Assembly (NCBI GenBank): GCA_963748215.1
Contig: CAVVHS010000002.1
Span: forward strand, 32,001 to 96,000
Length of the DNA stretch: 64,000 nucleotides
Direction of reading: 5' to 3'
DNA from: an uncultured Gammaproteobacteria bacterium
GTDB taxonomy: Bacteria > Pseudomonadota > Gammaproteobacteria > UBA9214
The position numbers and the translations under genes are program-made. Below, in pieces: positions 6,926 through 57,682 of this stretch (position 1 is the first letter of the stretch; the number at the start of each line of letters is the position of its first letter). Below the pieces are notes generated by a model. It was not told where the DNA came from, did no database searches, and saw only the letters and a list, made by a program, of their open reading frames with translations.

Positions 6926-7454
6926 CCTGCTTCCTGCTGCGACGCACTACCTGTTTCTGGCTGCGCAATCGCTGGTAGTCGGGGTGGTAGGTCAGGTTCT
7001 TGCTGAGGTAGACGTGACGGTCCTCACTCAGGAAGTCATGCTTGCGGAACAGCTTGATAGCCGGCTTGTTGTCGGCGTCGGTGTCGACGATCATCATGCG
7101 CGCTCCGGCGCGGATAAAGGCCTCGGTGATGCCCTCGATCAGCAGGCTGGCAATGCCGCTGCGTTTCAGTTCCGGATCGACCGCCAGCCAGGTCAGGTAG
7201 CCATAGCTCCAGGCGCTGTTGCGCTTGTCGATGAGTGAGCCCAGCGCAAAGCCCACCAGCCGGTCCTGGTACTCGGCGACGAGGCAGAACTCGCCATCCG
7301 AGTGGAACAGGCCAACGGCCTCGTATTCATCCCAGGTCCGGTACAGGCTGGGCCACTTGTCAGCCGTGAATACGCGCTCACCCAGCGCATAGACGGCCGA
7401 CAGGTCCTCCAGCTCCATTTCGCGCACCTCGACGCCTTTTTGAACGGCACTCAT
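6918..7454 (-). CDS. GNAT N-acetyltransferase
   Basis: LAVDPELKRSGIASLL acetyl-CoA motif A, NKPAIKLFRK; overlaps the M20 start by 8 bp. Confidence 0.88.
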   Translation of the reverse strand: MSAVQKGVEVREMELEDLSAVYALGERVFTADKWPSLYRTWDEYEAVGLFHSDGEFCLVAEYQDRLVGFALGSLIDKRNSAWSYGYLTWLAVDPELKRSGIASLLIEGITEAFIRAGARMMIVDTDADNKPAIKLFRKHDFLSEDRHVYLSKNLTYHPDYQRLRSQKQVVRRSRKQDD

Positions 7455-7592
7455 CACAGCTTCACCACGGCCTGTATCGACCGGAAAAGTATACCTGCAT
7501 TTATGGTCAATGCGATTCACAAAACGCCGACTGGATTCCCGGGAAACGCCTGGAGTATGCTAGGCTCGTTCCCATTCCCGACCCGCCCCGCC

Positions 7593-9371
7593 ATGCCCAA
7601 CCCCCGCATCCTGCGCCTCCTGCTGCCCATCCTGTCCACTGCGCTGTTCTACGCCCTGTATTACGCGATCAGCGCCATGGGTTTCGATGTCGTCATCGTG
7701 CCCAAGGCCATCCCGCGCGATTACCTGCTGAACCTGGTGCTGGCCTATGCGCTCATTGCATTGTCACGGCGTCTCTGGGTCTTCCTGCTGCTGCAGGGTC
7801 TGCTGATGGCCTTGCTGTACATAGGCAATGCCGTCAAGGTCAGCTTCTTCGGCGGCCCGATCATGCCGGATGATGTATATGCCCTGCGCACGCTGTTGCT
7901 GCTGCTGGAAGGCTGGCAGTTCTATCTTGCTGCGCTGCCGCTGGTCGGCATCGCCAGCCTGCTGATCTTCAATTTCAGCCTGCGTAACTGGGGTTCCTGG
8001 CTGGCACTTGCCGCATTGCTGTTGCTTGGTGTCACGCTGGTATACCAGCCGCGAAACATCATCAAGCCGCTCGATCACTACGTCGGCAACGTGGTCTGGG
8101 ACCAGCGCTCCAACTACCTGCAGCGCGGCGCCATGCTCTACTCGCTGATGGAAGGTGCACGTTACTTCGCCGACCGCGTACCGCCGCCCGACCGCGAGGC
8201 CGTGCGTGCGTCGCTTGCGCGCCTGCGGGCGGGCCTGCCGCCACACCACTTGCCGGCCGGGGAATTCACGCCGCGGAACGTGCATATTATATTGCTCGAG
8301 TCGTTCTGGGACCCGTCGCCGCTGAAAGCCGGCCACTACTCGCGTGACCCGTTGCCGAAGGACTTCCGTGCGCTATGGAAGCAGGCCGGTAACAGTCGCA
8401 TCCTGTCGCCGGTGTTCGGCGGCTATACCGCCAATGCCGAGTTCGAGGCGCTATGCGGCTTCCCGGTACTGCAGGATGCCGTCAAATTCGAGCGCGATCT
8501 CAAGAATGACGCGCCCTGCCTGCCGCGCATCCTGGCACAGCAGGGTTACACCACGATCGCCTCGCACCCCAACGTACCGGTGTTCTGGAACCGCGTGAAC
8601 GCCTATCGCCGGCTCGGCTTCGGGACCTACTGGTCGCTGGACGATTTCGAGAAAGTCGACATGGTGCGCAACTTCATGAGCGACGCCTCGCTCTACCGCC
8701 AGGTGCTGGACAAGATCGAACCCTGGCTCGACAGCGGCAAGCCGCTGCTGAACTACATCGTCACCTACTTTGGTCACTGGGACTATCCGCTGCGCGGCGA
8801 GCGTACTCGCGTCATCGATGATGCATCAGGCGTGCCCGAGGTCGGCAGCTTCGCCAACACGGCGTACTACAAGGCGAAGGAGTTGATGGAATTTCTCAAG
8901 GAACTCACCGGGCACGACCCGGACGCGCTGATTGTCATATTCGGCGATCATCCACCCTACCTCGGCTCGAACTTCTCCGGCTATGCCGAATCCGGTGTGC
9001 TGGCGGACAACCGCAGCAAGTTCACGGCGGAAATGTTCGGCGTCTACAATGCGGCACCGCTGATCGTCATCGACGGCAAACGCGGCGCCCGGAAATTTGG
9101 CACGCTGGCGCTGTATGAGCTGCCGGCCCTGCTGCTGCAACTGCTGCACCTCGACAACGCCGGGCCGATCGGACTGACCGCCCCGGAGACCGGGATGCAT
9201 GTACGCCCGATCCCGGGCCTGCATTACCTGGTCAGCGACACGGGCGACGTCGACGTGTGCAAGGAACCACCCTGGTCGGAGGACTGCAGCCGCAGCGCCG
9301 CCTGGCTAAAGGATGTCGTCACCGTCGGTGACGATTTATTTGTCGGGGGGCAGTTTACGCTCGGTGAATAG
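7593..9371 (+). CDS. LTA synthase/MdoB-like sulfatase-fold membrane phosphotransferase
   Basis: N-terminal TM helices, then NVHIILLESF, GGYTANAEFE (catalytic Thr) and FGDH motifs. Confidence 0.88.
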   Translation: MPNPRILRLLLPILSTALFYALYYAISAMGFDVVIVPKAIPRDYLLNLVLAYALIALSRRLWVFLLLQGLLMALLYIGNAVKVSFFGGPIMPDDVYALRTLLLLLEGWQFYLAALPLVGIASLLIFNFSLRNWGSWLALAALLLLGVTLVYQPRNIIKPLDHYVGNVVWDQRSNYLQRGAMLYSLMEGARYFADRVPPPDREAVRASLARLRAGLPPHHLPAGEFTPRNVHIILLESFWDPSPLKAGHYSRDPLPKDFRALWKQAGNSRILSPVFGGYTANAEFEALCGFPVLQDAVKFERDLKNDAPCLPRILAQQGYTTIASHPNVPVFWNRVNAYRRLGFGTYWSLDDFEKVDMVRNFMSDASLYRQVLDKIEPWLDSGKPLLNYIVTYFGHWDYPLRGERTRVIDDASGVPEVGSFANTAYYKAKELMEFLKELTGHDPDALIVIFGDHPPYLGSNFSGYAESGVLADNRSKFTAEMFGVYNAAPLIVIDGKRGARKFGTLALYELPALLLQLLHLDNAGPIGLTAPETGMHVRPIPGLHYLVSDTGDVDVCKEPPWSEDCSRSAAWLKDVVTVGDDLFVGGQFTLGE

Positions 9372-9449: not shown

Positions 9450-9767
9450 TCATACGTCCGGCTTGACCATATGCAGACCGGGCCCCGAACGCAGACGTTT
9501 CGCAGCCGCGTATTCCTCGTCCGTCATCTGGCTACCGACGACATTGCGCAGCAGTTCCGCATCCTTGTCACCCTGATCAACTGCCCGTGAAAGCCAGTAA
9601 TGGGCCTGCGCCATGTCTATGGAAACGCCCCGCCCCTCTGCATACACCAGGCCAAGCGCGTACTGCGCATCCACCTCGCCACGTTGTGCCGCTTCCAGAA
9701 TGGCAGGCACCTTGGAGGGATCGTTGCGCAGCAGGACCAGGTCCTTGAGATAGCCGTTATCGCTCAT
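9450..9767 (-). CDS. Sel1-repeat protein
   Basis: AQYALGLVYAEGRGV...AHYWLSRAVDQG Sel1 consensus. Confidence 0.85.
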   Translation of the reverse strand: MSDNGYLKDLVLLRNDPSKVPAILEAAQRGEVDAQYALGLVYAEGRGVSIDMAQAHYWLSRAVDQGDKDAELLRNVVGSQMTDEEYAAAKRLRSGPGLHMVKPDV

Positions 9768-10077
9768 GACTGGGATTGCCCGGGACGAGAGAGATACGAT
9801 TGTACGGTATGCGGCAGGACGGCGCGAACCCGTTATGGCACGAGTACGCACGGAGTTCCTCGACAACATGAGGTGCCGGCAACACGCGGCATGCGTTATG
9901 GGTCACCTTCCCCTTGATAATTCACTGGAATATTTTGCAGATATTGCGCACCAGCCGAATATCCATCGGCGCAGGCGCTTATGAGCGACACCACCGGACG
10001 GATCCTGTCAGCAGACCTGCATCGGAACGGCACGTGCCGGGAAACCCCTGGCCATATGTAGCGCAACCTGCGCTGAT

Positions 10078-11340
10078 TCAGGTAGCCGCACTCACACCAG
10101 CGACCCGGGCCATCACCTGCCGGTATTCATCACCCAGGCGCAGCAGCGTCACCAGCCACGCCAGGCATACGGCAAGCACCAGCCAGCTCAACTCGCCGGC
10201 GCTGATGCTCCACGGCAGCCACTGTGTCAGCAACAGGATCAGCACCGAGCCCAGCACCTTGAACAGCCGGTAGCCAAACATGTCGATCCAGGCCTTGGCC
10301 TGGAAAATCAACAGCGGATCGATCGGCACATACAACAGTTCCTTGGAGGCACGGTTGATGGAATACGACAGGCCGCGATCGGAGATCTTGAGGAAGGCAC
10401 CGGCCTGCAGAGTGGCATGCGACATGTACCAGAAACTGCCCGCCAGCACGGCCAGCGGCTGGGCGAACATGCCACCGAGCGCACCCAGCCAGCGGTGCAC
10501 CAGCGGCGTGATCAGCAGGTTGATGCCGATGGCGACGCCGCTCAGCAGGCTGAAGAAACCGCCCAGGTAGGCGGTGCGCGCCTCGCGATCGCTGATGGTC
10601 GCTTCCACCACCTTCATGAACTGGAATTCCACCAGCGGTTCGACCATCTGTGCCAACAGCAGTATCAACGCAATCAGGAACAGGTAGCGATGCCTGAGGA
10701 TGTCGCGCCAGTGACCGCTGTTTGCGTCGTTGTGATTGCGTACGCCGGCATGCTCGGTATACAGACCGAGCCGTCCCATCAGGAGAGTCAGCAGCACGAG
10801 CACACCGATGATGCCGGCGGCGACCAGCAGCAGGTCGGTGGTGTCGAGTTGAAATTGCGTGATGAGCACACTCGACAGGCTGCCGCCGGCCACACCGCCC
10901 AGCAGCCCGCCGGTCGCGATCAGCCCGTACCAACGCTTGCCGGCCTGCGTGTCGTAGATGGTATTGGTGAGACTCCAGAACTGCTCAACCAGGATCACAC
11001 TCAGCATGTCGACAAACATGTAAAACATGAACGCCTCAACGAATCCGCCGTTGTTGAGCTGCGGATAGAACGCCAGCAGGCAGACGATGATGATGGCACA
11101 GGTCCCGAGCACAACATTGATGCGTGAATGACGCGCGACGAGTCGGTTATAGAGGCTGATGATCAGGGCCAGCGCGACGGCGGTCGCTATCCACACATAC
11201 GGCAGGTTCGCACTGCCCAGCGAACTGATGAACAGGGAACGGCTCGCCGGCTTGAGGTGATACAGCGCCGTGATAATAAGAAAGAAATTTGTGAACAGGA
11301 GCACACAACGGCCGATATGTTCAGTGCGAAGATATGACAT
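10078..11340 (-). CDS. TLC/Npt family nucleotide (ATP/ADP) transporter-like protein
   Basis: About 12 TM segments; FWSLTN..DTQAGKRWYG and YSINRASKELLYVP...AKAWIDMFGYR match NTT/TLC motifs. Confidence 0.82.
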   Translation of the reverse strand: MSYLRTEHIGRCVLLFTNFFLIITALYHLKPASRSLFISSLGSANLPYVWIATAVALALIISLYNRLVARHSRINVVLGTCAIIIVCLLAFYPQLNNGGFVEAFMFYMFVDMLSVILVEQFWSLTNTIYDTQAGKRWYGLIATGGLLGGVAGGSLSSVLITQFQLDTTDLLLVAAGIIGVLVLLTLLMGRLGLYTEHAGVRNHNDANSGHWRDILRHRYLFLIALILLLAQMVEPLVEFQFMKVVEATISDREARTAYLGGFFSLLSGVAIGINLLITPLVHRWLGALGGMFAQPLAVLAGSFWYMSHATLQAGAFLKISDRGLSYSINRASKELLYVPIDPLLIFQAKAWIDMFGYRLFKVLGSVLILLLTQWLPWSISAGELSWLVLAVCLAWLVTLLRLGDEYRQVMARVAGVSAAT

Positions 11341-11447
11341 GAGTTGTAATTGAGCAGCGTGAGAAATGAATGAGCAGTAATAAAGCTTTGACTTATATAC
11401 GTTAATCGGTTAGCATCGTTGGAATTTTTTGGGTTCAGGAGGTCGTA

Positions 11448-12365
11448 ATGCTATCGGGACTGTTAAAGGCAATTGGACTCTCTCTGGGAATAATCGTTAC
11501 CCTTCAGACAGCTTCCGCGCAAAGCTCCTTCCCCGTCCTGCGTGAAGCCAAGAATCCGTCTCTACAGGCACAGCTCGAAAACCGTCTAAAACGCCTGAAA
11601 CTTGACGGCGCTGTGCGCAGCGGCGACCTTGCCGTGGCTCTGGTCGATGTCACCGATCCCCAGCATCCACAGCTTGCCCAGGTCAACGGCGACGATATGG
11701 TGTATGCCGCGAGCCTGCCGAAGATCGCCATCCTGCTGGCGGCCTTCGAGCGTGTGCATGAAGGCAAACTGCCGCTCGATGACGAAACGCGCCAGTTGAT
11801 GACGGACATGATCCGCCATTCTTCCAACAGCGCGGCAACGACCCTCATCCAGAAGGTCGGACGCAAGTATATCAACAATGTTTTACGCTCGCCGAAATAT
11901 CGCCTGTACGACCCGGCCCACAACGGCGGCCTGTGGGTAGGCAAGGAGTATGCACAGGGCGTGGCCTATCAGCGTGACCCGCTGCATAACCTGTCGCACG
12001 GTGCCACAGCCATCCAGGTGGCGCGCTTCTATTACCTGCTTGAAACCGGTCAACTGGTAACGCCGGAGCTCTCCAGGGAGATGAAGGCGATTCTGGGGAA
12101 TCCGGGTATCCACCATAAATTCGTGAAAGGACTGGAAGCCAACTTCCCCGATGCACAGATCTACCGCAAGTCCGGCAGCTGGCGCAACTGGCACGCCGAC
12201 AGCGCCATTGTCGAGCACGCGGGCCGCACCTATATCGCCGTTGCGCTGGCGCAAAGCCCGCAGGGCGGCGAATGGCTGAAGAACCTGATCTGCGAACTGG
12301 ATGGCATCATTTTGCAGCAGCCGGTGCGGACCGCCAGTCTGTCAAGAGCCGGTGCAGCCGAGTAG
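11448..12365 (+). CDS. Exported serine hydrolase, class A beta-lactamase/PBP fold
   Basis: Signal peptide; SxxK (ASLPK), SxN (SSN), KSG. Confidence 0.88.
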   Translation: MLSGLLKAIGLSLGIIVTLQTASAQSSFPVLREAKNPSLQAQLENRLKRLKLDGAVRSGDLAVALVDVTDPQHPQLAQVNGDDMVYAASLPKIAILLAAFERVHEGKLPLDDETRQLMTDMIRHSSNSAATTLIQKVGRKYINNVLRSPKYRLYDPAHNGGLWVGKEYAQGVAYQRDPLHNLSHGATAIQVARFYYLLETGQLVTPELSREMKAILGNPGIHHKFVKGLEANFPDAQIYRKSGSWRNWHADSAIVEHAGRTYIAVALAQSPQGGEWLKNLICELDGIILQQPVRTASLSRAGAAE

Positions 12366-13617
12366 CGAACGTCTGGTGCTCGACCGCCGAGTTTTTCTTC
12401 AGCACATTCGAAGTCAGCGAAACCATGTAGAACATCCGCGGCTCGCCCGCGGGTGATTCCACAATCGCAACCGAGTTCATCAGGTTATCCCGGTTCCCCA
12501 TATATTTCTTGCACACATAGCCTTCCTCCGCCTGGCAGCGGTACAGCGATCCCGACTTGAAATACAGCGCCGCGTCGTTCAGTGCCGGCGACGAGGCATA
12601 GCGTATGCGACGCTGGGTGATATACATCAGGCGCTTGATCTGCAGGCTCGACCAGGCATCGACCAGCCGACCCTGTTCCAGCAGCAGCAGGTAATGCATC
12701 AGCTCGCGCGTGGTGGCAATGCTGTTGGTGCCCGGCACACGGCGCTTGCCTTCTGACGTGAAGAAACTGCCCTGACGCAGGCTCTCAATGTCCAGCCCGT
12801 TGCGTGTCAACGGCGTCAGCAAACTATCGACCAGCAACTCACCGAGCGCCTTGCGCCCGGTGTCACGAAAGAACGCCGCTTCCTGCTCGGCAGACACCGG
12901 GTAGGCGGCGCCAAAGTGGCGCAACAGCAGCAACTGCTTGATCACCATGCTCGCGGCCGCATTGGAACTGGCCGACAGCATCCAGTCCAGGTAGGTCCAC
13001 AGATTTCCGGTATCGCCCGTGCGCAATTCACGGCGCGGCATGCGATTCAGCTCCGGTTTCCAGAACGGCACCTCGTGGTGATCGGTGCGGATGAAGGCAT
13101 CGGCAGTGACCTGCGTGTCCCTGAGCACGCGTATTCGCGCCTCGATGTCATCGGGATATATGTCAGCCAGTGCCTGGAACACCGCCAGTGCCACCATCAG
13201 CTTGCCGACACTGCCGGGATTGCGACGCGTGAGCCCGTTGTGTTCCGCAAAAACGGGATGGTCCGGATCGCTGAGATCCAGCACGCTGACACTGTAGTGC
13301 TTCGCCTCGGCACCGAGCAATGCGACGATCCTGCGTGTCAGGTCGGGATCGGCTTCAGGCAGTCGTAAATCCGCTTGCTGCTGCAGGCGCAGCTGGATCT
13401 GACCGGTATTCAGCAACGCCCCTGGCCGCAAGCGGTTTCCCGCCACCTTGCCTTCACTGGCGAGGCGGTAACCTTCCAGCCGGGCGATCCCCGTCTCGGC
13501 GTAACCGTCGACGGGGTAGGCCCAGGCCTGACCCGTGACGCCAGCCAGCACGGCAGCTGCCATCAGCCAGCGATTGAAACAGTCCCTTGAAATTATAGTC
13601 ATCTGAATTTTACACAT
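12307..13617 (-). CDS. Exported serine hydrolase, beta-lactamase/PBP fold with insertions
   Basis: Signal peptide (AAAVLAGVTGQAWA); SxxK (GSVGK), SxN (SSN), KSG; start may be a downstream Met. Confidence 0.82.
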   Translation of the reverse strand: MCKIQMTIISRDCFNRWLMAAAVLAGVTGQAWAYPVDGYAETGIARLEGYRLASEGKVAGNRLRPGALLNTGQIQLRLQQQADLRLPEADPDLTRRIVALLGAEAKHYSVSVLDLSDPDHPVFAEHNGLTRRNPGSVGKLMVALAVFQALADIYPDDIEARIRVLRDTQVTADAFIRTDHHEVPFWKPELNRMPRRELRTGDTGNLWTYLDWMLSASSNAAASMVIKQLLLLRHFGAAYPVSAEQEAAFFRDTGRKALGELLVDSLLTPLTRNGLDIESLRQGSFFTSEGKRRVPGTNSIATTRELMHYLLLLEQGRLVDAWSSLQIKRLMYITQRRIRYASSPALNDAALYFKSGSLYRCQAEEGYVCKKYMGNRDNLMNSVAIVESPAGEPRMFYMVSLTSNVLKKNSAVEHQTFATRLHRLLTDWRSAPAAAK

Positions 13618-13781
13618 CGTTCCTTATCACCTGACATTCTCCCGTGTCGTCATAGCGTGGTACGAAGTGAGCAGGAAATCCACCATCGGCGTGCCCTTGC
13701 ACAGAGAGCAGTCTCGCACCAGGAATTGCCTGGCTGTATTTGCAATGACGAGGTTCATGAACGTCCGGAGCCAACCTGATA

Positions 13782-16763
13782 CTAGTCCGCAACGGGGGGC
13801 AGTGGCGACTGACGCAGGTCAACCACGGCATCCGGTCCACTGTCGCCGCTGCGATCGATGTCAATCAGGTACTGGCTGCGCCGCGCACGCTGGCTTTCAA
13901 CGAAGGGGCGGATCTGGAACAGGGCGAGTTTGCCATCGCGAAATCCGAACTCGATATCCGCCGGCGCCGGCAACGCGCCCTTGCCCTGAGCAACCGGCAT
14001 CGGGAAGCGCCGCTCCACGTCATCCGACAGCCTCCGCAGCTGCTCGATCTCGTCCGGCTCCAGCACCTGCGCCCGACCGCTGGCCGGCACCTTGCGCATG
14101 CCACCGGCAGCTTCGGGTTCGGCACGCAACGGTGCCGTGGCCTGCGCCAGCAATCGTACCTCGCCGGCGGTGCGTCGCACCCGCAGTTCCTCGGCCGCCT
14201 GCCCTTCAACCGCACCGCCAACGCCTTCGCTGACCGCAATCGACAACCACTGGCGATCGCCGTTTTCCACGTCCGCCGTCACCAGCACGCCGGATTTATC
14301 CGAGGCAAAAGTCTTGAGGAGCAGCACCGCCGGGTAAACATGCTCCGGCTGCTCCATGTGCGCCTGGCGCCAGGCGTAGGCACGCTCCGTGAACGGCGAG
14401 GCCCATACCTTTTGAATGGCCTGCACGACGGCATCGAAGCCGACCACGTTGGGAACGGTGAGATTCAGGCCGGCACCGGTGAAACCGGGCAGGTCCTCGA
14501 CATTGGTGTCGCTGCGCACGAAGACACCGACCGTCTCGGCATCACCGAAGGCCTGCTGCATGGCAGCGCGCAGCTGTTCGCGGAACGCCGTTCCCGGCTC
14601 GGCACTGCTGATCCACTGGCGCAACCGTTCCAGAAACTGGCGCGTCTCGGCCTGGCGCTGCGCACCGTCCGGCAACGCGCGTAACCGCGTGTATTGCGCA
14701 CGCAGCCAGTCAAAGGCGGAGGATCCACCCGCCTCGATCGGCTGGTCCAGCAGGGCACGGAACACACCGAACGGTATGACCACGCCGGGATTCACCGCGT
14801 CCGGATAATGATGCAGCAACTCACCGAGATTGGCGGCCTTGGGACCGACGATGCGTCCGGAATCCGTGGCACGGATGGCGTCCAGCAGCAGCGGGGCGGT
14901 ATACGCAAGATCGAGCTTCTGCAGGTCCGGCCGGATCACCACATCGGCATCAAGCGCCTCGCGGCCGAAAATCCGGTCCCAGTGCGGGCCGTCGGTGGAG
15001 ATCTGTACCGTGCCGCGCGGGCTGACCGCAAGCACGATGCGCTCGCCGATGTGCGGCTGGAATTGCTCGACCAGCCGGTCGTCCACCACGACATTCGGGA
15101 TACCGAGATTGCGCGCCAGCAATTGCACGTGCGACAGCGAGCTGCCCTCGCCGCGGGTAAGAATGCCGGCAATCGGCGGCAACTCCGGCGTAGTCGATGG
15201 CAACAGATAGATACCATCCTTGCGAAAGTCCTCACCTTCCCGCGGCGCGGCAAGCAGTACGCCGCGCCGCAGGCCTGGATTGAGTGCGCGCAGTCCGCCG
15301 GCAAGCTTGCGCTCGAACAGGTATTGCCGGGTGCCGACCAGCTGGGCAGCGTCCTGCATCAGGACGTCCAGCACGCGTGTATAGGCAAGCAGCGGACTGC
15401 CACGCAGCCGATCCGGGACGTAGTGCGCCGCCGACGGCGTCAGGTCGAGCCACTGCTCGACCGTTGGTTCGAAATGGAATTCCAGCGCACGCTGCGCCCA
15501 TTGCGGCACGCGTGCCAGGTAGCTCAGCGTACTGTAGTAGTCCTCGGTGCCGGGCATGTCGCTGGCCTCGATGGCACCAAGCCGCTCGTCCAGGAAGCCC
15601 CACTGCCGGTCTGACAGGAACCCGCTGGCCTGCAGCGATACCGCCAGGCTGCGCAGCCACTGCAGGCGCGTGAGACGATCGACAGCGGGCATCTGCTCCA
15701 GCAACTGGTTGGCAGCGGCATAGACTTCCTGCTCCAGGGCAAGATTTGCCTGCAGCAGCCGTAGCTGGTTGGGTGGACTGAAACGATTGGTCTGCGGCAT
15801 CAGCCTGCGCAGCTGTAATGCAGCTTCCGCGGCGCTGCGCAGACGCACCTGCAGGTCCGGTGCGTCACGCAGGCTGGCGATGATTTCATTCAGGATTGGC
15901 GCGATCGGCTTGCTGCCACGTTCGGAGATCAGCGCTTCCAGCTGCAGGACGGCCGTGCGCGGCGCATACAGCGTATCGAGTTCGGCCGCGAGGCGCCGGT
16001 ACTGCCCCGCCAGTTTCGACAGGCCTTGCCTGGCGGCATAATCACGCACCCGCTGCGGATCGCTGGCATCCGGAAGGCCGTGCAGCTTCACGCGTAACGT
16101 CTGGAAATCCGGATCGGCATCGGCGATCTCGATCGCGAGCTGGCGCACGGTGACGGCAGTGGGCGGTTCCGTGCCGACAGGCAGCAGGCGCGCGGCCTCG
16201 CGCAGCAGCAGGTAGCGCGCCGGATCCAGCCAGTCCGGATCCTGCACCATGGCCAGCAGCAACAGGCGGGCCGCGGCGCGCTCGTCCTCGACCTGCAGGG
16301 CACCGCGATAGAAACGGGCCTGGCGGAACACCCAGCCGTCATCGTTCAGGATCAGAAACTGCTCCAGCAGCACCTGGCGCAGCACGTCAAGCTGCGGATA
16401 GGCACCGACGAACTTCAAGGCATTCAGGTCCGTCAGCAGGGTGGCGATCAGATAGCCCTGGTCGCGAATGGCAAGGGTATGCGCATTCCACTCGCCATGC
16501 TGCACACCCCCGCCGTGCTCGACGCAGGCGCCCTCTTTCGGTGGCAAGATACTGCCGTCGAAGCAGAACCAGCGGATGCGCTCGAACGGACCGCGCGAGG
16601 CCGCCTTCATCTGACTGATCCAGCTCCGCATCTGCTGCAGGTCGGGCACGGGCGGAGTGGCGTCGGCCGCGACCGGGAGCGAGGCAAACACACATACTGC
16701 CAGCACCAGTGCCGGCAGCAGACGACGGGGAGACAGATGAGATTGTATGTACAGGATTGGCAT
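13782..16763 (-). CDS. Exported PEP-utilising-family dikinase (phospho-His domain + C-terminal PPDK ATP-grasp), glucan-water-dikinase-like architecture
   Basis: Signal peptide RRLLPALVLAVCVFASLPVAA; SSLSHVQLLARNLGIP; VGPKAANLG, VRSDTNVEDLPGFTGAG, DIEF..FQIRP. Confidence 0.85.
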   Translation of the reverse strand: MPILYIQSHLSPRRLLPALVLAVCVFASLPVAADATPPVPDLQQMRSWISQMKAASRGPFERIRWFCFDGSILPPKEGACVEHGGGVQHGEWNAHTLAIRDQGYLIATLLTDLNALKFVGAYPQLDVLRQVLLEQFLILNDDGWVFRQARFYRGALQVEDERAAARLLLLAMVQDPDWLDPARYLLLREAARLLPVGTEPPTAVTVRQLAIEIADADPDFQTLRVKLHGLPDASDPQRVRDYAARQGLSKLAGQYRRLAAELDTLYAPRTAVLQLEALISERGSKPIAPILNEIIASLRDAPDLQVRLRSAAEAALQLRRLMPQTNRFSPPNQLRLLQANLALEQEVYAAANQLLEQMPAVDRLTRLQWLRSLAVSLQASGFLSDRQWGFLDERLGAIEASDMPGTEDYYSTLSYLARVPQWAQRALEFHFEPTVEQWLDLTPSAAHYVPDRLRGSPLLAYTRVLDVLMQDAAQLVGTRQYLFERKLAGGLRALNPGLRRGVLLAAPREGEDFRKDGIYLLPSTTPELPPIAGILTRGEGSSLSHVQLLARNLGIPNVVVDDRLVEQFQPHIGERIVLAVSPRGTVQISTDGPHWDRIFGREALDADVVIRPDLQKLDLAYTAPLLLDAIRATDSGRIVGPKAANLGELLHHYPDAVNPGVVIPFGVFRALLDQPIEAGGSSAFDWLRAQYTRLRALPDGAQRQAETRQFLERLRQWISSAEPGTAFREQLRAAMQQAFGDAETVGVFVRSDTNVEDLPGFTGAGLNLTVPNVVGFDAVVQAIQKVWASPFTERAYAWRQAHMEQPEHVYPAVLLLKTFASDKSGVLVTADVENGDRQWLSIAVSEGVGGAVEGQAAEELRVRRTAGEVRLLAQATAPLRAEPEAAGGMRKVPASGRAQVLEPDEIEQLRRLSDDVERRFPMPVAQGKGALPAPADIEFGFRDGKLALFQIRPFVESQRARRSQYLIDIDRSGDSGPDAVVDLRQSPLPPVAD

Positions 16764-17109
16764 ATTCAGGGGACCGGCCGTTCCGGACAGTACCGGGCAG
16801 GTTCGCGGTCAGACGAAGATAAAACCGGCGTCAGGCGTAATATCGAAACAATGCTGTCGGGTGACTCATAATAAACAACACTTTAGCGGGTCGTGCCGTG
16901 CAGTTGCAACCTCCATACCCGGCGACGGACAGCCAGAGTTACCGAAAGCGACGATCCGACCCGTCACACAAGCGGCAATTCACGGATTTACATGGATAAT
17001 TAAAGCGTAACGCGCGCGGAACGAAAACCCCCTTGGCCCGGGAAGCACCCTGCATGAGATGCGGGTGTGACACAAACCATCTCAACCCGGCCTTGCCTTC
17101 CCGAATGGG

Positions 17110-17898
17110 TCATTTAACCTCTTCGAAGTAGTCATACTCATAATTCACATCGAAACTGCCATCCCCGTCCGAATCATATTCAGCGGAAACCAGTTTTCCC
17201 ATATGAAATCTCTGGCGTTTTTTACGCCGGTCCCGGCCTTCGCCGAGGATTATGACCTCTTCGAGATTGCCGTACCTGAACGTGGCCCTGAGATCCGTAT
17301 CCCCGTCCTGGTTCAGATCCGACGTCTGGAAACCCGCCTGGCCGTCCACATAGGTATAGCGTGTTTCATAGACTCCGTCGAAATCGTCATCGTGCTCGGC
17401 AGTTTTCACCAGGCCGTGGCGATCGTAGTGATAGACAAGATCGGTTTTAGCGTCGTAATTCCTGTCGACTTCCAGCCGGCTCATCCGCTTGTCCCGGTAA
17501 ATCCACTTCTCATCCGGCACCCCGTCGCCGTTTACATCGATACCTTCCTCGGTAACCGGGGTGTTATACGCCCAGAACATTACACCGCCGCCAACCACAA
17601 GGCCGGCGATGAATCCGGCAATACCGCTGGCCGGCTTGCGGGCTGCCGTTGCTGATTCCTGTTCGACCTGGATCGACTCCCAGTCACTGATTATCTGCCG
17701 CGCCCGCGGATAATCCGGCTCGTCGACCATGACCCGTACCAGGTTGATCGCCTGCAGCTCGCCCACACCGCCCGGCAGGTACTCGCCGTCCACCCTGCCG
17801 GTGATGCCTTCCTGCTCCAGCAAATTCAGGATCATGTGCGCGTCCAGCGCGGTCGCGGCCTCGTAAACGCTTTTCACTTGCTGCCCGGCCCGACGCAT
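17110..17898 (-). CDS. DUF2007-like N-terminal domain + TM + acidic DxNxDG repeats
   Basis: VYEAATALDAHMILNLLEQEGI N-terminus; one TM; repeats DVNGDG, DRNYDA, DDDFDG, DLNQDG, DSDGDG; true start may be the GTG near 17877. Confidence 0.7.
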   Translation of the reverse strand: MRRAGQQVKSVYEAATALDAHMILNLLEQEGITGRVDGEYLPGGVGELQAINLVRVMVDEPDYPRARQIISDWESIQVEQESATAARKPASGIAGFIAGLVVGGGVMFWAYNTPVTEEGIDVNGDGVPDEKWIYRDKRMSRLEVDRNYDAKTDLVYHYDRHGLVKTAEHDDDFDGVYETRYTYVDGQAGFQTSDLNQDGDTDLRATFRYGNLEEVIILGEGRDRRKKRQRFHMGKLVSAEYDSDGDGSFDVNYEYDYFEEVK

Positions 17899-17932: not shown

Positions 17933-19513
17933 TCATTCGCCCTTCCAGAACACGTGGTACAGATCATGCCGCCGGTCGCGCAGGTTCTTCACCGTGCCAT
18001 TGTTGCGGGCATCGAGCAGGGTTGCCGGACGCAGGTCGGCTATCGCTACCATTTCCGTGTTGGGTGTCGTGTCAGCGGCAATGCCGTCACGCGCGAACGG
18101 CAGGTCGCATGGGGTCAGGATGCAGCTCTGGGCATACTGGATGTCCATGTTCGCCACGTTCGGCAGGTTGCCGCAGTTGCCTGCCATGACCACGTACACC
18201 TGGTTTTCCACGGCGCGGGACTGGCAGCAGTAACGCACCCGCAGGTAGCTCTGGCGCTCGTCGGTGCAAAACGGCACGAACAGGATCTGCGCGCCCTGGT
18301 CGGTCAGGTGGCGCGCCAGTTCCGGAAACTCCGCATCGTAGCAGATCAGCACACCGATCGGCCCGCAATCGGTCTGGATCACATCCAGCTCGCTGCCGCC
18401 CTCGATGTTCCACCACCAGGCCTCGTTCGGCGTCGGATGGATTTTCGCCTGCGTGTGGATGCTGCCGTCGCGCAGGAACACGTAGCAGATGTTTTCCACC
18501 CGCCCGTTCGGCATATGCGTCGGGTGCGAGCCACCGATGATATTGATGTTGTAGCGCAGGGCGAGGTCGCGCATGGCCTCGGTGAACTGCGGGGTATACC
18601 GGGTCAGCGCGTCGATGGCCTGCACCGGTGTCAGTTGCTGCGATTCCATGGACAGCAGCTGCAAGCTGAAGAGCTCGGGAAAGACCACGAAGTCACCCTT
18701 GTAATCGGCGACCACGTCGACGAAGTAACGCACGATATCGATGAATTCCTCGAACGACTTCACGCGCCGCTGCTTGTACTGCACGGCGCCGATCCGCACG
18801 CAGTCAGGCAAGCGTCCACCATAGGACTTTTCCTGCGTCCCGGCCTCCTCCTGCCGGACCTTCGGATTGCGCCAGGCCATGTGGATGCCGTAGCCGAGCG
18901 ATTGCGTATCCACGTCCAGGTAGTGCGGAATGATGCCGATGACTTCAAAGCCGTTGCGCAACTGGAAGGACAGCACCGGGTCGCGCTGTGATTTGTCCTT
19001 TATCGCATCGATGTAGGCCTCCACTGTGCCGAAACGCTTGATGCGCCGCGCCAGAGTGGGCAGTCGCCCGGCGAACACGATGCCTTTCAGGCCCAGGTCC
19101 TGCGCCAGCCGCTTGCGCGCGTTATACAGGCGCTGCCCGATACGGTAGCCGCGGAAATCCGGGTCGACGCACACCTCCATGCCATACAGCCACTCGCCCG
19201 CAGGGTCGTGGGTGGAGGCATAGCCGTTACCGGTGATCGCACCCCAGGTGTGCGTCTTCATGCACACCTGCTCGCTGACCCGCAGGGTGGCGCAGTAGCC
19301 GACGATCCGCTCGCCGGCCGTCACCACGAACTGGCCGGCGGGAAAGTGGTTGAGCTGGCCGGTCAGCATCGGTTCCGAATGACCGTACATGCCGGTGTCG
19401 CGATAGACGCGCGAGGACAGCGCAGCGATCTGCGGGATGTCCTCCATCACAGCATTGCGCACCTGCAGCTGGAGTTTCTGGTTCGCGAGTGGACTGGCGG
19501 TTTTTTTACTCAT
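17933..19513 (-). CDS. Bifunctional GNAT acetyltransferase / carbon-nitrogen hydrolase
   Basis: VDPDFRGYRIG GNAT motif; nitrilase triad FPE, AKIH, ICYD. Confidence 0.93.
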   Translation of the reverse strand: MSKKTASPLANQKLQLQVRNAVMEDIPQIAALSSRVYRDTGMYGHSEPMLTGQLNHFPAGQFVVTAGERIVGYCATLRVSEQVCMKTHTWGAITGNGYASTHDPAGEWLYGMEVCVDPDFRGYRIGQRLYNARKRLAQDLGLKGIVFAGRLPTLARRIKRFGTVEAYIDAIKDKSQRDPVLSFQLRNGFEVIGIIPHYLDVDTQSLGYGIHMAWRNPKVRQEEAGTQEKSYGGRLPDCVRIGAVQYKQRRVKSFEEFIDIVRYFVDVVADYKGDFVVFPELFSLQLLSMESQQLTPVQAIDALTRYTPQFTEAMRDLALRYNINIIGGSHPTHMPNGRVENICYVFLRDGSIHTQAKIHPTPNEAWWWNIEGGSELDVIQTDCGPIGVLICYDAEFPELARHLTDQGAQILFVPFCTDERQSYLRVRYCCQSRAVENQVYVVMAGNCGNLPNVANMDIQYAQSCILTPCDLPFARDGIAADTTPNTEMVAIADLRPATLLDARNNGTVKNLRDRRHDLYHVFWKGE

Positions 19514-22294: not shown

Positions 22295-22498
22295 GCCACT
22301 ACCTCGCGGACCGCATCAGGCAGCTGCCACCTGCAGCCCGCATACCCCTTGTAATTGTGTTTTTTCAGATTTCACCGAAGCCTAGCATGTTCAATAATCG
22401 CGCACCAGACAGGTACCGCGCCGCTACGGATTGTTTTCCTGCACCGCCCGTTACAGTAAGATGAGGCCCATAAAACATAACCGGGGCAGGGACTCACC

Positions 22499-24424
22499 AT
22501 GGCAGACAAGTTGACCTTCCGTCGCTATGCCGACGACGACCACGTCTGGAAGCGCTGGTCCGAGGACATCTTCAACGAAGATACCTCCTACAAGTGCCCG
22601 ACCTACGTCCACCGCACCCCGCCCTGCCAGGGAAGCTGCCCGTCCGGCGAGGACATCCGCGGCTGGCTGCAGATCGTGCGCGGCATCGAGAAACCGCCGG
22701 CCGGCATGCCCTGGCAGGAGTACGCCTTCCGTCGCTCCACCGACGCCAACCCCTTCCCCGCCATCATGGGGCGGGTCTGCCCGGCGCCCTGCCAGGAAGG
22801 CTGCAACCGCAACGAGGTGGAGGACTTCGTCGGCATCAACGCGGTGGAACAGTTCATCGGCGACCATGCCCTGGCCGCCAGGCTCGCCTTTCAGCGCCCG
22901 CCACAGGAGACCGGCAAGCGGGTCGCCATCATCGGCGGCGGCGTGGCGGGCCTGGCAGCCGCCTACCAGCTGCGCCGGCTGGGCCATGGCGCCACCCTCT
23001 TCGACGAGCGCGCGGAACTCGGCGGCATGACCCGCTACGGCATTCCGGGTTACCGCATGCCGCGCGACGTCATGGATGGCGAGATCCAGCGCATTCTCGA
23101 TATGGGCGTGGACGTCCACATGAACACCCGCGTCGGTCGCGACATCAGCTTCGCACAGCTGGAAAAAGACTACGACGCCATCGTGCTGGCCATCGGCGCG
23201 CAGCAGGGTCGCAACCTGGACATCCCCGGCGGCGAGGCACCCAACTGCGTGAGCGGCGTGGCCTTCCTGGCGGCCTTCAACGAGGGCCGCATGCACTTCA
23301 CCGCGGGCAAGGTCGTGGTGATCGGCGGCGGCGACACCGCCATGGACGTGGTCTCGGTGGCACGCCGCCTCGGCCACATCAGCACCACCCACGAAAACGA
23401 TCGCCCGGAGGCAGTCATCCGCAACCATACCGCACATGACGTCGCCGCCACCGCCAGCCGCGAGGGCTCCGAGGTCATGCTGATCTACCGCCGCCCGATC
23501 GAGAACATGCCGGCGGCCGAGCACGAACGCGTAACCGCGAAGAAAGAAGGTATCGAGCTGCGCGGCAATCTGGCGCCGGTGGAACTGGTGCTGGGCGAGG
23601 ACGGCCGCGCCAGGGCGCTGCGCGTCATCGAGGTTGACTGGAGCAGCGGCAGGATGGTCGAGAAGGCCGGCTCGGAATTCGACATCGAGTGCGACCTGGT
23701 CGTACCGGCCGTGGGCCAGTCCGGCGACCTGACCGGCCTGGAGCAGTTCGACAATGGCCGCGGCCTGATCGACGCCGACCAGTTCTTCCAGCTCCCCGAC
23801 AAACCCGGCTACTTCGCCTGCGGCGATATCGTGCGCCCGCACCTGCTGACCACCGCCATCGGCCAGGCAGCTGTCACGGTCGACAGCATCGACCGCTACC
23901 TGCGCGAGGCCGGGACCGGCCGCCGGCCCAAGGTCGACGTGCATCACTTCAACCTGCTGGAGAAACTGCGCGAAACCAGCCTGGCCCCGGCGGAGTATGC
24001 ACACTTCCAGGAGTGGGGCACTGACAGCGCGTCCTATGCGGTGCACAACTACGAGGACCGCTCGCAGAGCGAAATCATCCCGCACGAACTGCTCTACCTG
24101 GGACATTTCCCGTTCACACCGCGCAACCAGCGTCTCGAGACCGGTGTCGGCGCCGACCAGGTGCTGGGCCATTTCGAGGAACGCTTCCGCGGCCTGGGCG
24201 AGGAACAGGCACAGGCCGAAGCCGAACGCTGCATGAGCTGCGGCATGTGCTTCGAGTGCGACAACTGCGTGATCTACTGCCCGCAGGACGCCGTAAAGCG
24301 CACGCCGAAGGACCGCGCGACCATGGGCCGCTACGTATACACCGATTATGACCGCTGCATCGGCTGCCACATCTGCGCCGAGGTCTGCCCGACCGGTTAC
24401 ATCAACATGGGCATGGGTGCCTGA
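22499..24424 (+). CDS. dsrL: DsrL-like iron-sulfur flavoprotein NAD(P)H oxidoreductase
   Basis: KCPTYVHRTPPCQGSCPSGEDIRGWL, GRVCPAPC, two Rossmann folds, C-terminal CMSCGMCFECDNC and CIGCHICAEVCP ferredoxin motifs. Confidence 0.88.
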   Translation: MADKLTFRRYADDDHVWKRWSEDIFNEDTSYKCPTYVHRTPPCQGSCPSGEDIRGWLQIVRGIEKPPAGMPWQEYAFRRSTDANPFPAIMGRVCPAPCQEGCNRNEVEDFVGINAVEQFIGDHALAARLAFQRPPQETGKRVAIIGGGVAGLAAAYQLRRLGHGATLFDERAELGGMTRYGIPGYRMPRDVMDGEIQRILDMGVDVHMNTRVGRDISFAQLEKDYDAIVLAIGAQQGRNLDIPGGEAPNCVSGVAFLAAFNEGRMHFTAGKVVVIGGGDTAMDVVSVARRLGHISTTHENDRPEAVIRNHTAHDVAATASREGSEVMLIYRRPIENMPAAEHERVTAKKEGIELRGNLAPVELVLGEDGRARALRVIEVDWSSGRMVEKAGSEFDIECDLVVPAVGQSGDLTGLEQFDNGRGLIDADQFFQLPDKPGYFACGDIVRPHLLTTAIGQAAVTVDSIDRYLREAGTGRRPKVDVHHFNLLEKLRETSLAPAEYAHFQEWGTDSASYAVHNYEDRSQSEIIPHELLYLGHFPFTPRNQRLETGVGADQVLGHFEERFRGLGEEQAQAEAERCMSCGMCFECDNCVIYCPQDAVKRTPKDRATMGRYVYTDYDRCIGCHICAEVCPTGYINMGMGA

Positions 24425-24684
24425 TTCAAGGGGGGGCGGCCAGCGCCGATAATTCAGCCCGTGACCAGGAATCGAAAAATATATCACCTGCGAACCACTT
24501 GTTTGCGTGCAGCGAGTTAACAGAAACGTGAAACAGAGCACTTTTTTTCTGAATTGAAATGGGCTAATATTCCCAAACCTGTCGGGACGCAGCACCCTCA
24601 AGAACTGCTGACCGGCACCCGTAAACAACCTGACATGTAACTTGCCCCGGGCCGCAGGCACGACAAGTCGCATCGGAGATCGCT

Positions 24685-43599: not shown

Positions 43600-44314
43600 T
43601 CACCGTAACCGGCTCCAGCAGGCGATCAGGGTCAAGCGATGCGACATAGGACGGGGCGGGGCCTGTACCCCCGAGCAGGGGATCCCAATAGTCATCGAAG
43701 CTGGCAAACTCTGTTGTAATCTCGATCGACTCGCAGCATACCTCGCACAGGCGACTCGCGCGGAACAGATCTGCAAGCGTCCCGGGGCGGCAGATCGGGA
43801 AGCGCTTGCCTTCATCCAGATCCCGGGCATTCGAATCCTTCGCCACGGCGGCATCCCGGAAATAGCGAAGCAATTCCATCTTGCCTGCATAGTCCCAGAC
43901 GCAGGCCGAGATGATCCCCCGGCCAGCGCTGAGAGAGCGCATCTCTTCGATCGCGGCCTTCGGACCCGCAAAGGAGTTAAGGGCGAGTAACGAGGTAATG
44001 CTGCCATAGCCGTCTTAGTGGCCGGGAAGCGAGCCCACTCCAGCGACAACAAACAAAGCCCGGGCGTCACGGGATTGCCGACCCGCGTACGCCATGAACG
44101 GATCGGCCGGATCGCAACCCAGGACCGATGCGGGATCGACCTGACAGCAGATTGCCTCCGTGAGGGCGCCCGTTCCGCAGCCCACATCCAGCCAGTGAAT
44201 ATTGCCGGGCGGGCGCTACCAGGAAACAAACCGGGGCACGAGCTGTCGGCTCCACCGGCCCATGAAGTCCTCATAATCAAGGCCGGCAGCCCATTGATCG
44301 CGTACATCAGGCAT
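43600..44314 (-). pseudogene. Degraded class I SAM-dependent methyltransferase
   Basis: YEDFMGRWSR then a stop; WLDVGCGTG in another frame; ACVWDYAG...LLGGTGPAPSYV in a further fragment. Confidence 0.75.
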
Positions 44315-44464
44315 GCGCTTGTCTTCTTCGCCCTGTCTGACGACTGCCATGAACGGCCGGGGCACCGCCACCAGGCGGAGACCTGGTCCGGTTGCATATG
44401 GCGCACGGATCGATGGCCTTCTCAGGTGCACACCTAACGACCCTGTACATTGTCTCTCCTTGAA

Positions 44465-44695
44465 TCACCACGATCTATATACAACCAAACCACTTATAAC
44501 AACCAACACCAGGTAGGTGGCCAAATAGCACCATTCCGCGGGCCCGGAGTGCCCGACCGCTTCAATTGAAAAGGTGCCTTCAACCCACGTCCAAAACGGC
44601 ATCGTCAACAGGGTTGTAACGACAGCAATCGGTGCACAGACAATCACGACGACCAGTCCGATTGCAGCTCCCTTCAAGCGCTCGAGAAATGTCAC
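44465..44695 (-). CDS. Cassette: small membrane protein
   Basis: Two TMs, GHSGPAEWC motif; bounded by degenerate attC-like sites. Confidence 0.55.
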   Translation of the reverse strand: MTFLERLKGAAIGLVVVIVCAPIAVVTTLLTMPFWTWVEGTFSIEAVGHSGPAEWCYLATYLVLVVISGLVVYRSW

Positions 44696-44716
44696 GTTAA
44701 AAACTGCACAGTGTGC

Positions 44717-44770
44717 GCTTAGCTGTCGGGCGGCGACGCCGTCCGGTCGGCTGCAGCGTGTTGTTGGGCA
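44717..44770 (-). other. Degenerate attC
   Basis: TTGTTGGGC end intact; other end decayed (GCTTAGC). Confidence 0.55.
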
Positions 44771-45165
44771 GAAGTTCTCGACTCGATTCCCAGGCGCATA
44801 AACCTGGAAAAGCGAGGCATTATCCAGATCGACACGCATATCGCCACGAGATGGCGGCCGATGGCATAGGTCGATAGCCACTGTCGCGGGTACTCGAATA
44901 CTCCCCATGAGGAAAGGTCCGTGACCACGAACCATAGTGTGTCTATAACCTCGAGCACACCAAGTGGCAGGAGTAGCAGTACGAGGTAGAGCTGCAGCTT
45001 GCAAGGTGCCCGTCTCAAGAAGAAGAGAGGCAATACAAACGGCCAAATTCGAGAAAGGCCCTGAAATACTCCGAAATAGGCCAGTGCTTCCCAGCCTGCA
45101 GCGGCGGCCACGCCCGGCAGCACGAAGAACAGCACAACGAGTGCGACATATGCGAGTCGATTCAT
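44719..45165 (-). CDS. Cassette: hypothetical membrane protein
   Basis: Hydrophobic ORF reading into the attC. Confidence 0.6.
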   Translation of the reverse strand: MNRLAYVALVVLFFVLPGVAAAAGWEALAYFGVFQGLSRIWPFVLPLFFLRRAPCKLQLYLVLLLLPLGVLEVIDTLWFVVTDLSSWGVFEYPRQWLSTYAIGRHLVAICVSIWIMPRFSRFMRLGIESRTSAQQHAAADRTASPPDS

Positions 45166-45174
45166 TTCTTCACC

Positions 45175-45235
45175 CGACTATTGAACTCAAGCGAGCCGTG
45201 TAAACAGTGCCGCCTGGAGCGACTGGTCATACGTA
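45175..45235 (-). other. Degenerate attC
   Basis: CGACTATTGAACTCAAGCG...CTGGAGCGACTGGTCATAC; cores mutated. Confidence 0.45.
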
Positions 45236-45435
45236 GATCGCCTATTTTGAGCCTGCCATAGGTTGGTACATATCCTGATTTATAAACCAGAATACGCTGC
45301 CTGTATCAATGAAAAGAGCAAACAGCCCTGAATAGAGAACAAATGGTCTGTCCGAGCCATCTGACACCAGCGCAACAACAATGGAAACCGTGCCCACCAA
45401 CGGAAAACCTGATACCCATTTGTAATCGTCCCTCG

Positions 45436-45497
45436 TCTGAGCTCACACGCTAGCGGTGCGCCAGCATCGCGAGTAAGGTGGGGCGATTAGTTAGACG
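45436..45497 (-). other. Degenerate attC
   Basis: GTCTGAG...GTTAGAC. Confidence 0.5.
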
Positions 45498-45498
45498 T

Positions 45499-45849: not shown

Positions 45850-45850
45850 C

Positions 45851-45922
45851 GTCTAACGCCAAGCCAGGAGGCGGGCAAACCGCGAAGCAGGTTGGCCGTC
45901 CGACTTGAGCACCGTGTTATGT
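45851..45922 (-). other. attC
   Basis: GTCTAAC...GTTATGT with internal stem. Confidence 0.85.
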
Positions 45923-46462: not shown

Positions 46463-46476
46463 TTCCCTACTCTGAC

Positions 46477-46557: not shown

Positions 46558-46573
46558 GAAAATGTCGCCATGT

Positions 46574-46882: not shown

Positions 46883-46910
46883 ACAGGTATCTTTTGTCTT
46901 CTGACGGCAT

Positions 46911-57681: not shown

Positions 57682-57682
57682 A

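Follow-up and report, generated by a model that had tools for sequence, protein, structure and literature searches.

The closest described systems are the starch dikinases GWD1 (glucan, water dikinase; EC 2.7.9.4) and PWD (phosphoglucan, water dikinase; EC 2.7.9.5) of plants and algae, in which a helical central domain is followed by a phospho-histidine (His) domain and then by a C-terminal ATP-grasp domain. According to the available part of a 2026 paper (PMC13553574), the central domain of potato GWD1 (StGWD1) lies directly ahead of the His domain and contains 20 helices, and its authors saw no clear equivalent of it in the PDB. The central and His domains were proposed there as the phosphate-transfer site, with E900 and R904 on a helix facing the catalytic histidine, and section 10 of that paper proposes R904 as the stabilising base opposite this histidine. 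Rifampin phosphotransferase (RPH) and phenolic phosphate synthetase are also dikinases, which lack a pyruvate barrel and phosphorylate hydroxyl groups via a phospho-His. The chemistry of the periplasm is taught as ATP-free, and the known periplasmic phosphotransfers use lipid-linked donors. Here we describe the gene of a predicted exported dikinase of the GWD/PWD type, together with two neighbouring serine hydrolase genes and a membrane carrier gene, in a 64,000-nt stretch of DNA (the window) from an uncultured Gammaproteobacteria bacterium of the lineage UBA9214 (contig CAVVHS010000002.1, positions 32,001 to 96,000). It is fairly probable that the enzyme acts in the periplasm and phosphorylates a hydroxyl of an envelope substrate, paired with the hydrolases, which are of the penicillin-binding protein (PBP) type.

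The dikinase gene (P0001; 13782..16763, minus strand) is a single open reading frame of 993 aa in DNA of about 60-66% GC. On the same strand, its product is divided into a Sec-type signal peptide (residues 1-33; 16665..16763; cleavage site judged by eye), a family-specific N-terminal subdomain (residues 34-139; 16347..16664), a central helical domain (residues 140-507; 15243..16346), a swivelling phospho-His domain (residues about 493-600; 14964..15287), and an ATP-grasp nucleotide-binding domain (residues 638-962; 13878..14852). The family-specific subdomain, with C67, C80, the motif HGGGVQHGEW (83-92) and a beta hairpin in the model, had no match in any library searched, and residues 1-500 as a whole gave no credible match in Pfam. 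Motifs of the central domain are DDGW (141-144), LRVKLHGLPDASD (223-235), and DRLRG (451-455). Pfam PEP-utilizers (PF00391) matched residues 520-560 with an E-value of 3.8e-6, and the His motif LSHVQLLARN occupies residues 543-552. H545 of this LSH motif (codon 15129..15131, minus strand), which is predicted to be the phospho-carrier histidine, was kept in 29 of the 30 aligned sequences. Pfam PPDK_N matched residues 638-962 (E 1e-33), where the ATP-grasp motifs VRSDTNVEDLPGFTGAGL (749-766) and TVPNV (769-773) are found, and R750, E756, D757, D936, E938, Q950, and R952 were conserved in 28-30 of the 30 sequences. The first-pass annotation, made from the letters of the DNA, had placed a His motif ahead of a C-terminal nucleotide-binding domain and had seen no pyruvate-binding TIM barrel. 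Both statements were borne out, as Pfam at E up to 1 gave no match to PEP-utilizers_C or a TIM barrel; it gave none to the carbohydrate-binding modules (CBM) CBM45 and CBM20 either. The family is large: of 8000 candidates that were scored, at least 3304 proteins matched at E ≤0.001. Identity was 52-100% in the 120 best of these homologues, which were nearly all full length and whose named sources include Thioalkalivibrio, Guyparkeria, and Mariprofundus.

Comparison of the catalytic half with known dikinases pointed to the starch enzymes. A plant PWD with CBM20, GWD1_pHisD, and PPDK_N domains (P0152), obtained by a length-shifted search, was used as a query and gave 150 PWD-like representatives, of which 41 were aligned. 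The His and ATP-grasp domains of the dikinase family ran collinearly with this set over 429 columns (hhalign Prob 100, E 6e-41). The LSH motif, LSHVQLLARN in the dikinase, reads LSHLGVRARQ in P0152, and the motif VRS..NVEDL..GAGL...PNV as well as the Arg opposite the catalytic His were also retained; the PWD motifs given at the first pass were matched by P0152. In a tree of the ATP-grasp domain, made with a quick IQ-TREE run on 30 rows and rooted on a single long-branched PPDK, the dikinase family was the sister of the PWD-like clade, and one PEP synthase (PPS) and one RPH-like sequence fell outside. The phylogenetic check that had been suggested thus placed it beside PWD with a support of 85 in the SH-like approximate likelihood ratio test (SH-aLRT), albeit with a thin outgroup. 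The dikinase differs from GWD and PWD in its signal peptide and invariant Cys pair and in having a family-specific N-terminal subdomain of 105 aa instead of CBM45, CBM20, or a TIM barrel. Aligned with a plant PWD, it reaches 30% identity over no more than 198 aa, and its gene partners encode PBP-type hydrolases and an NTT-type carrier instead of amylases and glucan phosphatases.

Similarity to the PEP (phosphoenolpyruvate) synthases (PEPS; PpsA), PPDK, and RPH was also evident. Solved structures matching the dikinase by sequence were PEP synthases and RPH, via the ATP-grasp domain (profile E 2.8e-42 to 8a8e in the PEP synthase/PPDK group and 2e-42 to 5hv1 of RPH, the closest solved ATP-grasp), and the sequence ARNLGIPNVV in the PF00391-type His domain resembles the AR-x-x-GIP of PEP-utilising enzymes. 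The NCBIfam models of PEP synthase, rifampin phosphotransferase, and prodigiosin ligase, however, matched via the ATP-grasp domain only and scored 50-105 bits, where the cut-offs are 598-1700. TIGR01418 gave 95.5 bits (cut-off 739.75), NF005057 gave 103.9 (598), and the RPH model NF041857 gave 95.9 (999); for the PEP synthase/PPDK group as a whole the scores were 96-105 bits against 598-883. The order of domains is reversed relative to PEP synthase and PPDK and the TIM barrel is missing, while RPH has the ATP-grasp domain first, the His domain last and an unrelated substrate domain, and is cytoplasmic. These results supported the view that the dikinase is not a PEP synthase, PPDK, or RPH, and with the scores far under the cut-offs, the reversed domain order and no pyruvate barrel they agreed with the initial suggestion that the acceptor is probably not pyruvate. 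As judged from its sequence, the dikinase has the catalytic core of a GWD/PWD-type enzyme and lacks a module for starch binding.

Other PPDK_N proteins were observed in the course of the searches. In the source genome, contigs C7 and C3 also carry genes with PPDK_N. The strongest of these matches (C7, about 401128-402116; L057, L060, L061) is probably the canonical ppsA. It is divided among three open frames (84 aa, 440 aa, and 525 aa), one of which contains an internal TGA; the gene may be frameshifted or broken, or the assembly may be in error. Two short proteins of 696 aa (L053:7215-9305, genome G171) and 658 aa (L054:7443-9419, genome G376) carry a His + ATP-grasp half that grouped with the dikinase family in the tree (SH-aLRT 96). 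They were rejected as full family members, their N-terminal 350-400 aa being unrelated (Prob 0.14), and no hydrolase or carrier gene adjoined them.

The helical region ahead of the His domain was modelled and compared by profile. Its AlphaFold model, based on 38 homologues, had a predicted local distance difference test score (pLDDT) of 87.6 and a predicted template modelling score (pTM) of 0.85, and consisted of a small hairpin bearing the Cys pair and then about 22 helices, which confirmed the helical region of about 500 aa noted at the first pass. Neither the model nor the profile of this region had a convincing match among solved structures (nothing below E 0.28 in the PDB profile search), and a search of the ESM Atlas gave only two unnamed clusters, in which PF00391 was present in a minority of members and which are possibly fragments of the same family. 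Against the PWD-like set, the region was aligned over 341 columns with Prob 93.6 and E 2.1e-7, residues about 140-507 falling on residues 325-737 of PWD. After the His-domain residues were trimmed off, the alignment persisted (Prob 90.9, E 1.2e-6, 353 columns), while reversed-sequence controls gave Prob 0.6 and 1.5, E 0.09 and 0.03, and 45 and 74 columns. The PWD-like set comprised two architectures that are plainly homologous to each other, a CBM20 type from plants and algae and a second one in which a xylose-isomerase-like TIM barrel stands at the N-terminus. Among the latter, the members with names are from metagenome-assembled genomes (MAGs) of Nitrospirota/Thermodesulfovibrionales. With the TIM-barrel subset only, Prob was 91.0, E was 1.1e-6, and 306 columns were aligned. 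Positions shared with PWD included DDGW (EDGG in PWD) and L-R-V-K-[IL]-H...P-D-x-x-D (L-Q-N-K-L-H...P-E-D in PWD), with K-[IL]-H...P-[DE]-D in common. R454, kept in 37 of 38 homologues, was aligned with R694 of PWD and, by spacing, with R904 of StGWD1. By these alignments, the N-terminal helical region is homologous to the PWD/GWD central domain. The possible relation to starch dikinases that had been raised at the first pass was in this way extended from the His + ATP-grasp half to the domain that would bind the acceptor.

The TIM-barrel proteins (P0189, P0193, P0196, P0202, P0213, P0229, P0282, and P0303) are about 1150-1310 aa long, have a PF01261 barrel in place of the starch-binding module, and are the closest relatives of the dikinase central domain. 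Their records are named 'hypothetical protein' or, from JGI, 'phosphoglucan,water dikinase'.

The gene directly downstream of the dikinase encodes BL436 (P0121; 12307..13617, minus strand), an exported serine hydrolase of 436 aa with the class A beta-lactamase/PBP-A fold. BL436 has a signal peptide and the motifs S136-x-x-K139, S217-x-N219, and K354-S-G356; these catalytic motifs were invariant in 19 of 19 sequences, and the pair Cys361/Cys369 was near-invariant among its homologues. Its model (pLDDT 89.1) was matched by Foldseek to PBP-A (2j8y) and CTX-M with template modelling (TM) scores of 0.73-0.75, E about 1e-10, and 13-16% identity. The second hydrolase, BL305 (P0122; 11448..12365, plus strand), is an exported protein of 305 aa from the class A beta-lactamase family, is convergent with BL436 with an overlap of 59 nt, and carries a signal peptide with S89-x-x-K92, S125-S-N127, and K241-S-G243. 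Pfam PF13354 was found in P0121 and P0122 with E 7.6e-7 and 1.1e-23, and neither had a PDB or NCBIfam match by sequence. BL436 and BL305 resemble PBP-A (Tll2115) and CTX-M in the S-x-x-K, S-x-N, and K-S-G motifs, in being exported and in fold, and BL436 differs from them in carrying some 130 additional residues and a Cys pair not shared with them. Prediction of a complex between the N-terminal domain of the dikinase and mature BL436 gave a score of 0.00, which points neither way. Two apparent dikinase-hydrolase fusions in the database (P0136 and P0133) contained long Arg/Pro-rich stretches in the wrong frame and were read as frameshifted gene calls; they probably stem from error-prone assemblies.

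Linkage of these genes was examined in an even set of 401 Pseudomonadota genomes from 212 genera. A dikinase match at E ≤1e-30 was present in 30 genomes, 28 of them full length and two short forms, and the full-length homologues came from 7 of the 212 genera. A BL436 homologue adjoined the dikinase in 27 of these 28 genomes and was found in 0 of the 373 others. The sole exception was G340, whose dikinase had 28% identity. In four genomes of one genus (G017, G021, G025, and G049; 99% complete), the dikinase was accompanied by BL436 and one or two copies of BL305, and the dikinase and BL436 genes overlapped by 1-8 nt at start and stop. Among 16 loci from species-representative genomes, 13 extended far enough for all four genes to be tested, and the dikinase, BL436, BL305, and the carrier were all present at 12 of them; at the remaining one, L010, BL436 was only partial. 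The four-gene module was also found at 38-46% identity with shuffled order in G078, G202, and G118. BL436 is strictly paired with the dikinase, while the carrier is only facultatively linked. From these counts, the dikinase and BL436 form the core unit; BL305 usually goes with them, and the carrier is a frequent accessory. The neighbourhoods of the most distant homologues, in G340 and G090, were uninformative, and a scan of 9900-17200 for promoters and terminators stayed at chance level (2 against 2.1 expected and 6 against 5.6). Tandem pairs of BL305 occurred in some genomes of the best-represented genus, at L055 (G009), L064 (G021), and L066 (G049); in G009 the carrier gene lies between the two copies, and G021 and G049 lack it.

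The acceptor would most likely belong to the carbohydrate hydroxyls of envelope polymers, the leading candidate being the glycan strands of peptidoglycan or muropeptides. The sugar hydroxyl is suggested by the family history of GWD and PWD, and peptidoglycan by the PBP-type partners. A different reading keeps the chemistry and assumes a small-molecule acceptor, so that the dikinase and its beta-lactamase-fold companions would form a periplasmic detoxification or resistance unit, like RPH or phenolic phosphate synthetase. The ATP-grasp domain is equally similar to the RPH/PEPS structures and to PWD, two beta-lactamase-family genes adjoin the dikinase gene, and no carbohydrate-binding module was found in the dikinase. 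RPH-type dikinases phosphorylate small hydroxylated molecules, according to section 10 of PMC13553574 in its available part. The acceptor side of the enzyme speaks for the polymer instead, since the order of domains is that of GWD/PWD and the domain facing the acceptor is homologous to the PWD central domain and not to the rifampin-binding domain of RPH. The hydrolases had no evident omega-loop Glu when compared by eye with a class A consensus. Moreover, the strict pairing in chemolithoautotrophs (Mariprofundus, Guyparkeria, and Thioalkalivibrio), in Myxococcota-titled MAGs and in few of the sampled genera resembles a housekeeping envelope function and not a mobile resistance island. We consider a small-molecule acceptor unlikely.

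Export of the dikinase is central to the favoured reading of a periplasmic enzyme. Its signal peptide has two arginines (R13 and R14), a hydrophobic core, and the residues V-A-A ahead of D34. Three crude rules were applied to the best 120 homologues, 108 of which had a complete N-terminus. A hydrophobic 12-mer with a Kyte-Doolittle value (KD) of at least 1.8 preceded the conserved core in 104 of the 108, an AxA-like site was present in all 108, and 84 passed all three rules; most of the others missed the K/R rule, and in many the hydrophobic core started at residues 1-4. The region was conserved in position and not in sequence, as expected for signal peptides. C67 and C80, in the motifs W65-F-C67 and G78-A-C80, are the sole Cys residues of the mature protein and were invariant in 38 of 38 aligned homologues, and exactly two Cys followed the hydrophobic segment in 88 of the 108; the pair is probably disulfide-bonded. 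The signal peptide and the Cys pair (WFC...GAC) of the first-pass annotation were both recovered, and the extracytoplasmic location proposed there was further strengthened by the exported obligate partner. Export via Sec is a strong prediction from these features.

The N-terminal hydrophobic segment could also be an uncleaved anchor or go unused, in which case catalysis would be cytoplasmic and the carrier would have nothing to do with ATP supply. ATP is generally said to be absent from the periplasm, the signal peptide was judged by crude rules, and the carrier is missing from 12 of the 28 dikinase genomes, which is easier to accommodate if ATP is not needed in the periplasm. Positive charges ahead of the hydrophobic core and AxA-like sites behind it in 108 of 108 N-termini indicate, on the other hand, an N-in/C-out topology. 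The exactly two invariant Cys of the mature part, the signal peptides of both BL436 and BL305, and the fold of these hydrolases, known from periplasmic enzymes, argue for export too. In addition, the protein record of the homologue P0124 shows a META domain (PF03724) C-terminal to the ATP-grasp domain. META domains are typical of exported proteins. A cytoplasmic location is accordingly rated as quite improbable.

The fourth gene of the module encodes a membrane carrier of 420 aa (P0123; 10078..11340, minus strand), a frequent but non-obligate member. Pfam TLC matched it with 54.5 bits (cut-off 21). The profile built from 15 orthologues matched the ADP/ATP carrier 9j3n with E 6.7e-27, over positions 4-399 of 411, and the ADP/ATP carrier 9j3j with E 5.6e-18; no other transporter among solved structures was matched at E up to 1. 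P0123 keeps the signature SKE-x-x-Y-x-P-x-D...K-A-x-I-D...R of the NTT/TLC transporters (ADP/ATP carrier protein 1, plastids and intracellular bacteria), and it differs from the characterised NTTs in its length (420 aa against about 500-600) and in the identity of 21-28% inside its own sub-clades. By these matches P0123 is a true member of the TLC/NTT family. The host is free-living, and the direction needed would therefore be export of ATP and not import. In the available part of a 2017 survey (PMC5381601), NTT genes are reported from free-living bacteria and all functionally characterised NTTs come from parasites; this part makes no mention of periplasm, export, or gene neighbours.

Export, catalysis, the acceptor, and ATP supply by the carrier are inferred here, and the catalytic cycle is modelled on the GWD/PWD family. 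ATP would be bound by the C-terminal ATP-grasp domain, and its beta-phosphate would be transferred to H545 on the swivelling His domain with release of AMP and Pi. The His domain would then swing to the central domain (about 140-507), where R454 is predicted on the helix facing the catalytic histidine, and the phosphate would pass to the hydroxyl of the bound acceptor. The dikinase would work as a fixed pair with BL436, with BL305 usually along, and the TLC/NTT-type carrier could swap cytoplasmic ATP for the AMP or ADP and Pi made outside. The version with every part specified, in which periplasmic ATP serves for the phosphorylation of sugar hydroxyls on peptidoglycan, muropeptides or another envelope glycan, the carrier, where present, delivers ATP outwards, and the phosphate loosens the polymer or flags it for the two PBP-type hydrolases, is doubtful as a whole. 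If it is true, the phosphorylation-then-degradation cycle of plant starch would be its counterpart. The broader claim at the first pass, of an extracytoplasmic polymer or small-molecule dikinase possibly related to the starch dikinases, is supported by the in silico tests.

Several results weigh against the favoured reading of an exported, envelope-modifying dikinase. The hydrolase partners have a peptidase/esterase fold, so that a sugar acceptor is argued from the family only, and no glycoside hydrolase, phosphatase, or carbohydrate-binding module was found in the gene module. GWD1_pHisD (PF22973), matched by 13 of 13 PWD-like proteins scanned, had no match in the dikinase at E up to 1, PF00391 being found instead. 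The helical region was not significantly similar to the plant and algal PWD subset alone (Prob 1.0, E 0.057, 287 columns), nor its profile to a single PWD sequence (Prob 0.64, E 0.09, 53 columns); the central-domain signal rests on the bacterial TIM-barrel subset, and the link to plant PWD is therefore made by transitivity. P0123 scored 35.9 bits with TIGR00769, far under the cut-off of 387.2. A close (at least 58% identity) or adjacent carrier was present in only 16 of the 28 dikinase genomes, G017, G021, G025, and G049 had none within 6-9 kb of the module, and TLC-family matches also occurred in 27 genomes free of the dikinase. Nine of the 12 dikinase genomes without a close carrier had a paralogue of 21-25% identity elsewhere, and three had none at E ≤1e-10. 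A dedicated ATP supply would thus be non-obligatory, or be met by such a distant paralogue; failing any other route, the proposed outward transport of ATP by the carrier would be wrong. One genus contributed 22 of the 28 dikinase-positive genomes, and the counts therefore overstate independence; by genus, BL436 was linked in six of seven and the carrier in five of seven.

Word searches of the literature, which missed subscription journals, brought up no account of either an exported GWD-type dikinase or the four-gene module. New in the present analysis are the collinearity of the His and ATP-grasp domains with PWD and the alignment of the dikinase helical region with the PWD/GWD central domain, for which the signal comes from bacterial PWD-like proteins and not from the plant subset alone. 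An exported ATP-grasp/phospho-His enzyme with a fixed hydrolase partner in several phyla, frequently with an ADP/ATP-carrier homologue alongside, would challenge the view of an ATP-free periplasm, and would bring into the bacterial envelope a type of dikinase hitherto investigated for its action on the starch of plants and algae. Two orphan groups, the NTT carriers of free-living bacteria and this class-A-beta-lactamase-like clade, would gain a first function as well. Should peptidoglycan or some other glycan of the envelope prove to be the acceptor, a new pathway of covalent modification of the cell envelope would be at hand.

The dikinase might instead phosphorylate BL436 or BL305 itself and switch its hydrolase activity, the module being a regulatory pair. 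The strict adjacency of the dikinase and BL436 (27 of 28 genomes against 0 of 373) and the short start/stop overlaps of their genes in four genomes would suit such a pair. The central-domain residues shared with PWD, however, argue for a conserved site for a small hydroxyl-bearing group, and we know of no member of GWD/PWD, PEPS, PPDK, or RPH that phosphorylates a protein other than itself; this possibility is highly improbable. A loss of the chemistry with retention of the fold, which would leave the dikinase as an inactive relic or as a protein that only binds, is extremely improbable, since the catalytic His and ATP-grasp residues are kept in P0001 and in 28-29 of 30 homologues and PPDK_N is matched at E 1e-33. 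In favour of such a loss is G340, the most distant full-length homologue, in which R750, D757, E938, and R952 are lost and no Pfam match remains.

The module is flanked by genes of other kinds. Beyond the carrier gene lie a 689-aa sulfatase-family (PF00884) protein (7302-9371, plus strand), which is full-length in L001, L004, and L006 and a fragment in L005, and a small Sel1-repeat protein (9450-9869, minus strand), kept in L001, L005, and L006. The sulfatase and Sel1 genes probably reflect synteny in the closest relatives and are not members of the module. On the other side, a DUF2007 protein (17110-17898) is preceded upstream by a 526-aa protein (17933-19513, minus strand) in which a GNAT acetyltransferase is fused to a carbon-nitrogen hydrolase domain and which adjoins the dikinase only in close relatives. 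A 740-aa open reading frame further along (22451-24673, minus strand) had no Pfam match at E ≤0.001. Towards the end of the window, in its final 20 kb (44001-64000), the GC content drops from about 0.62 to 0.44-0.55, and this part may be a horizontally acquired island.

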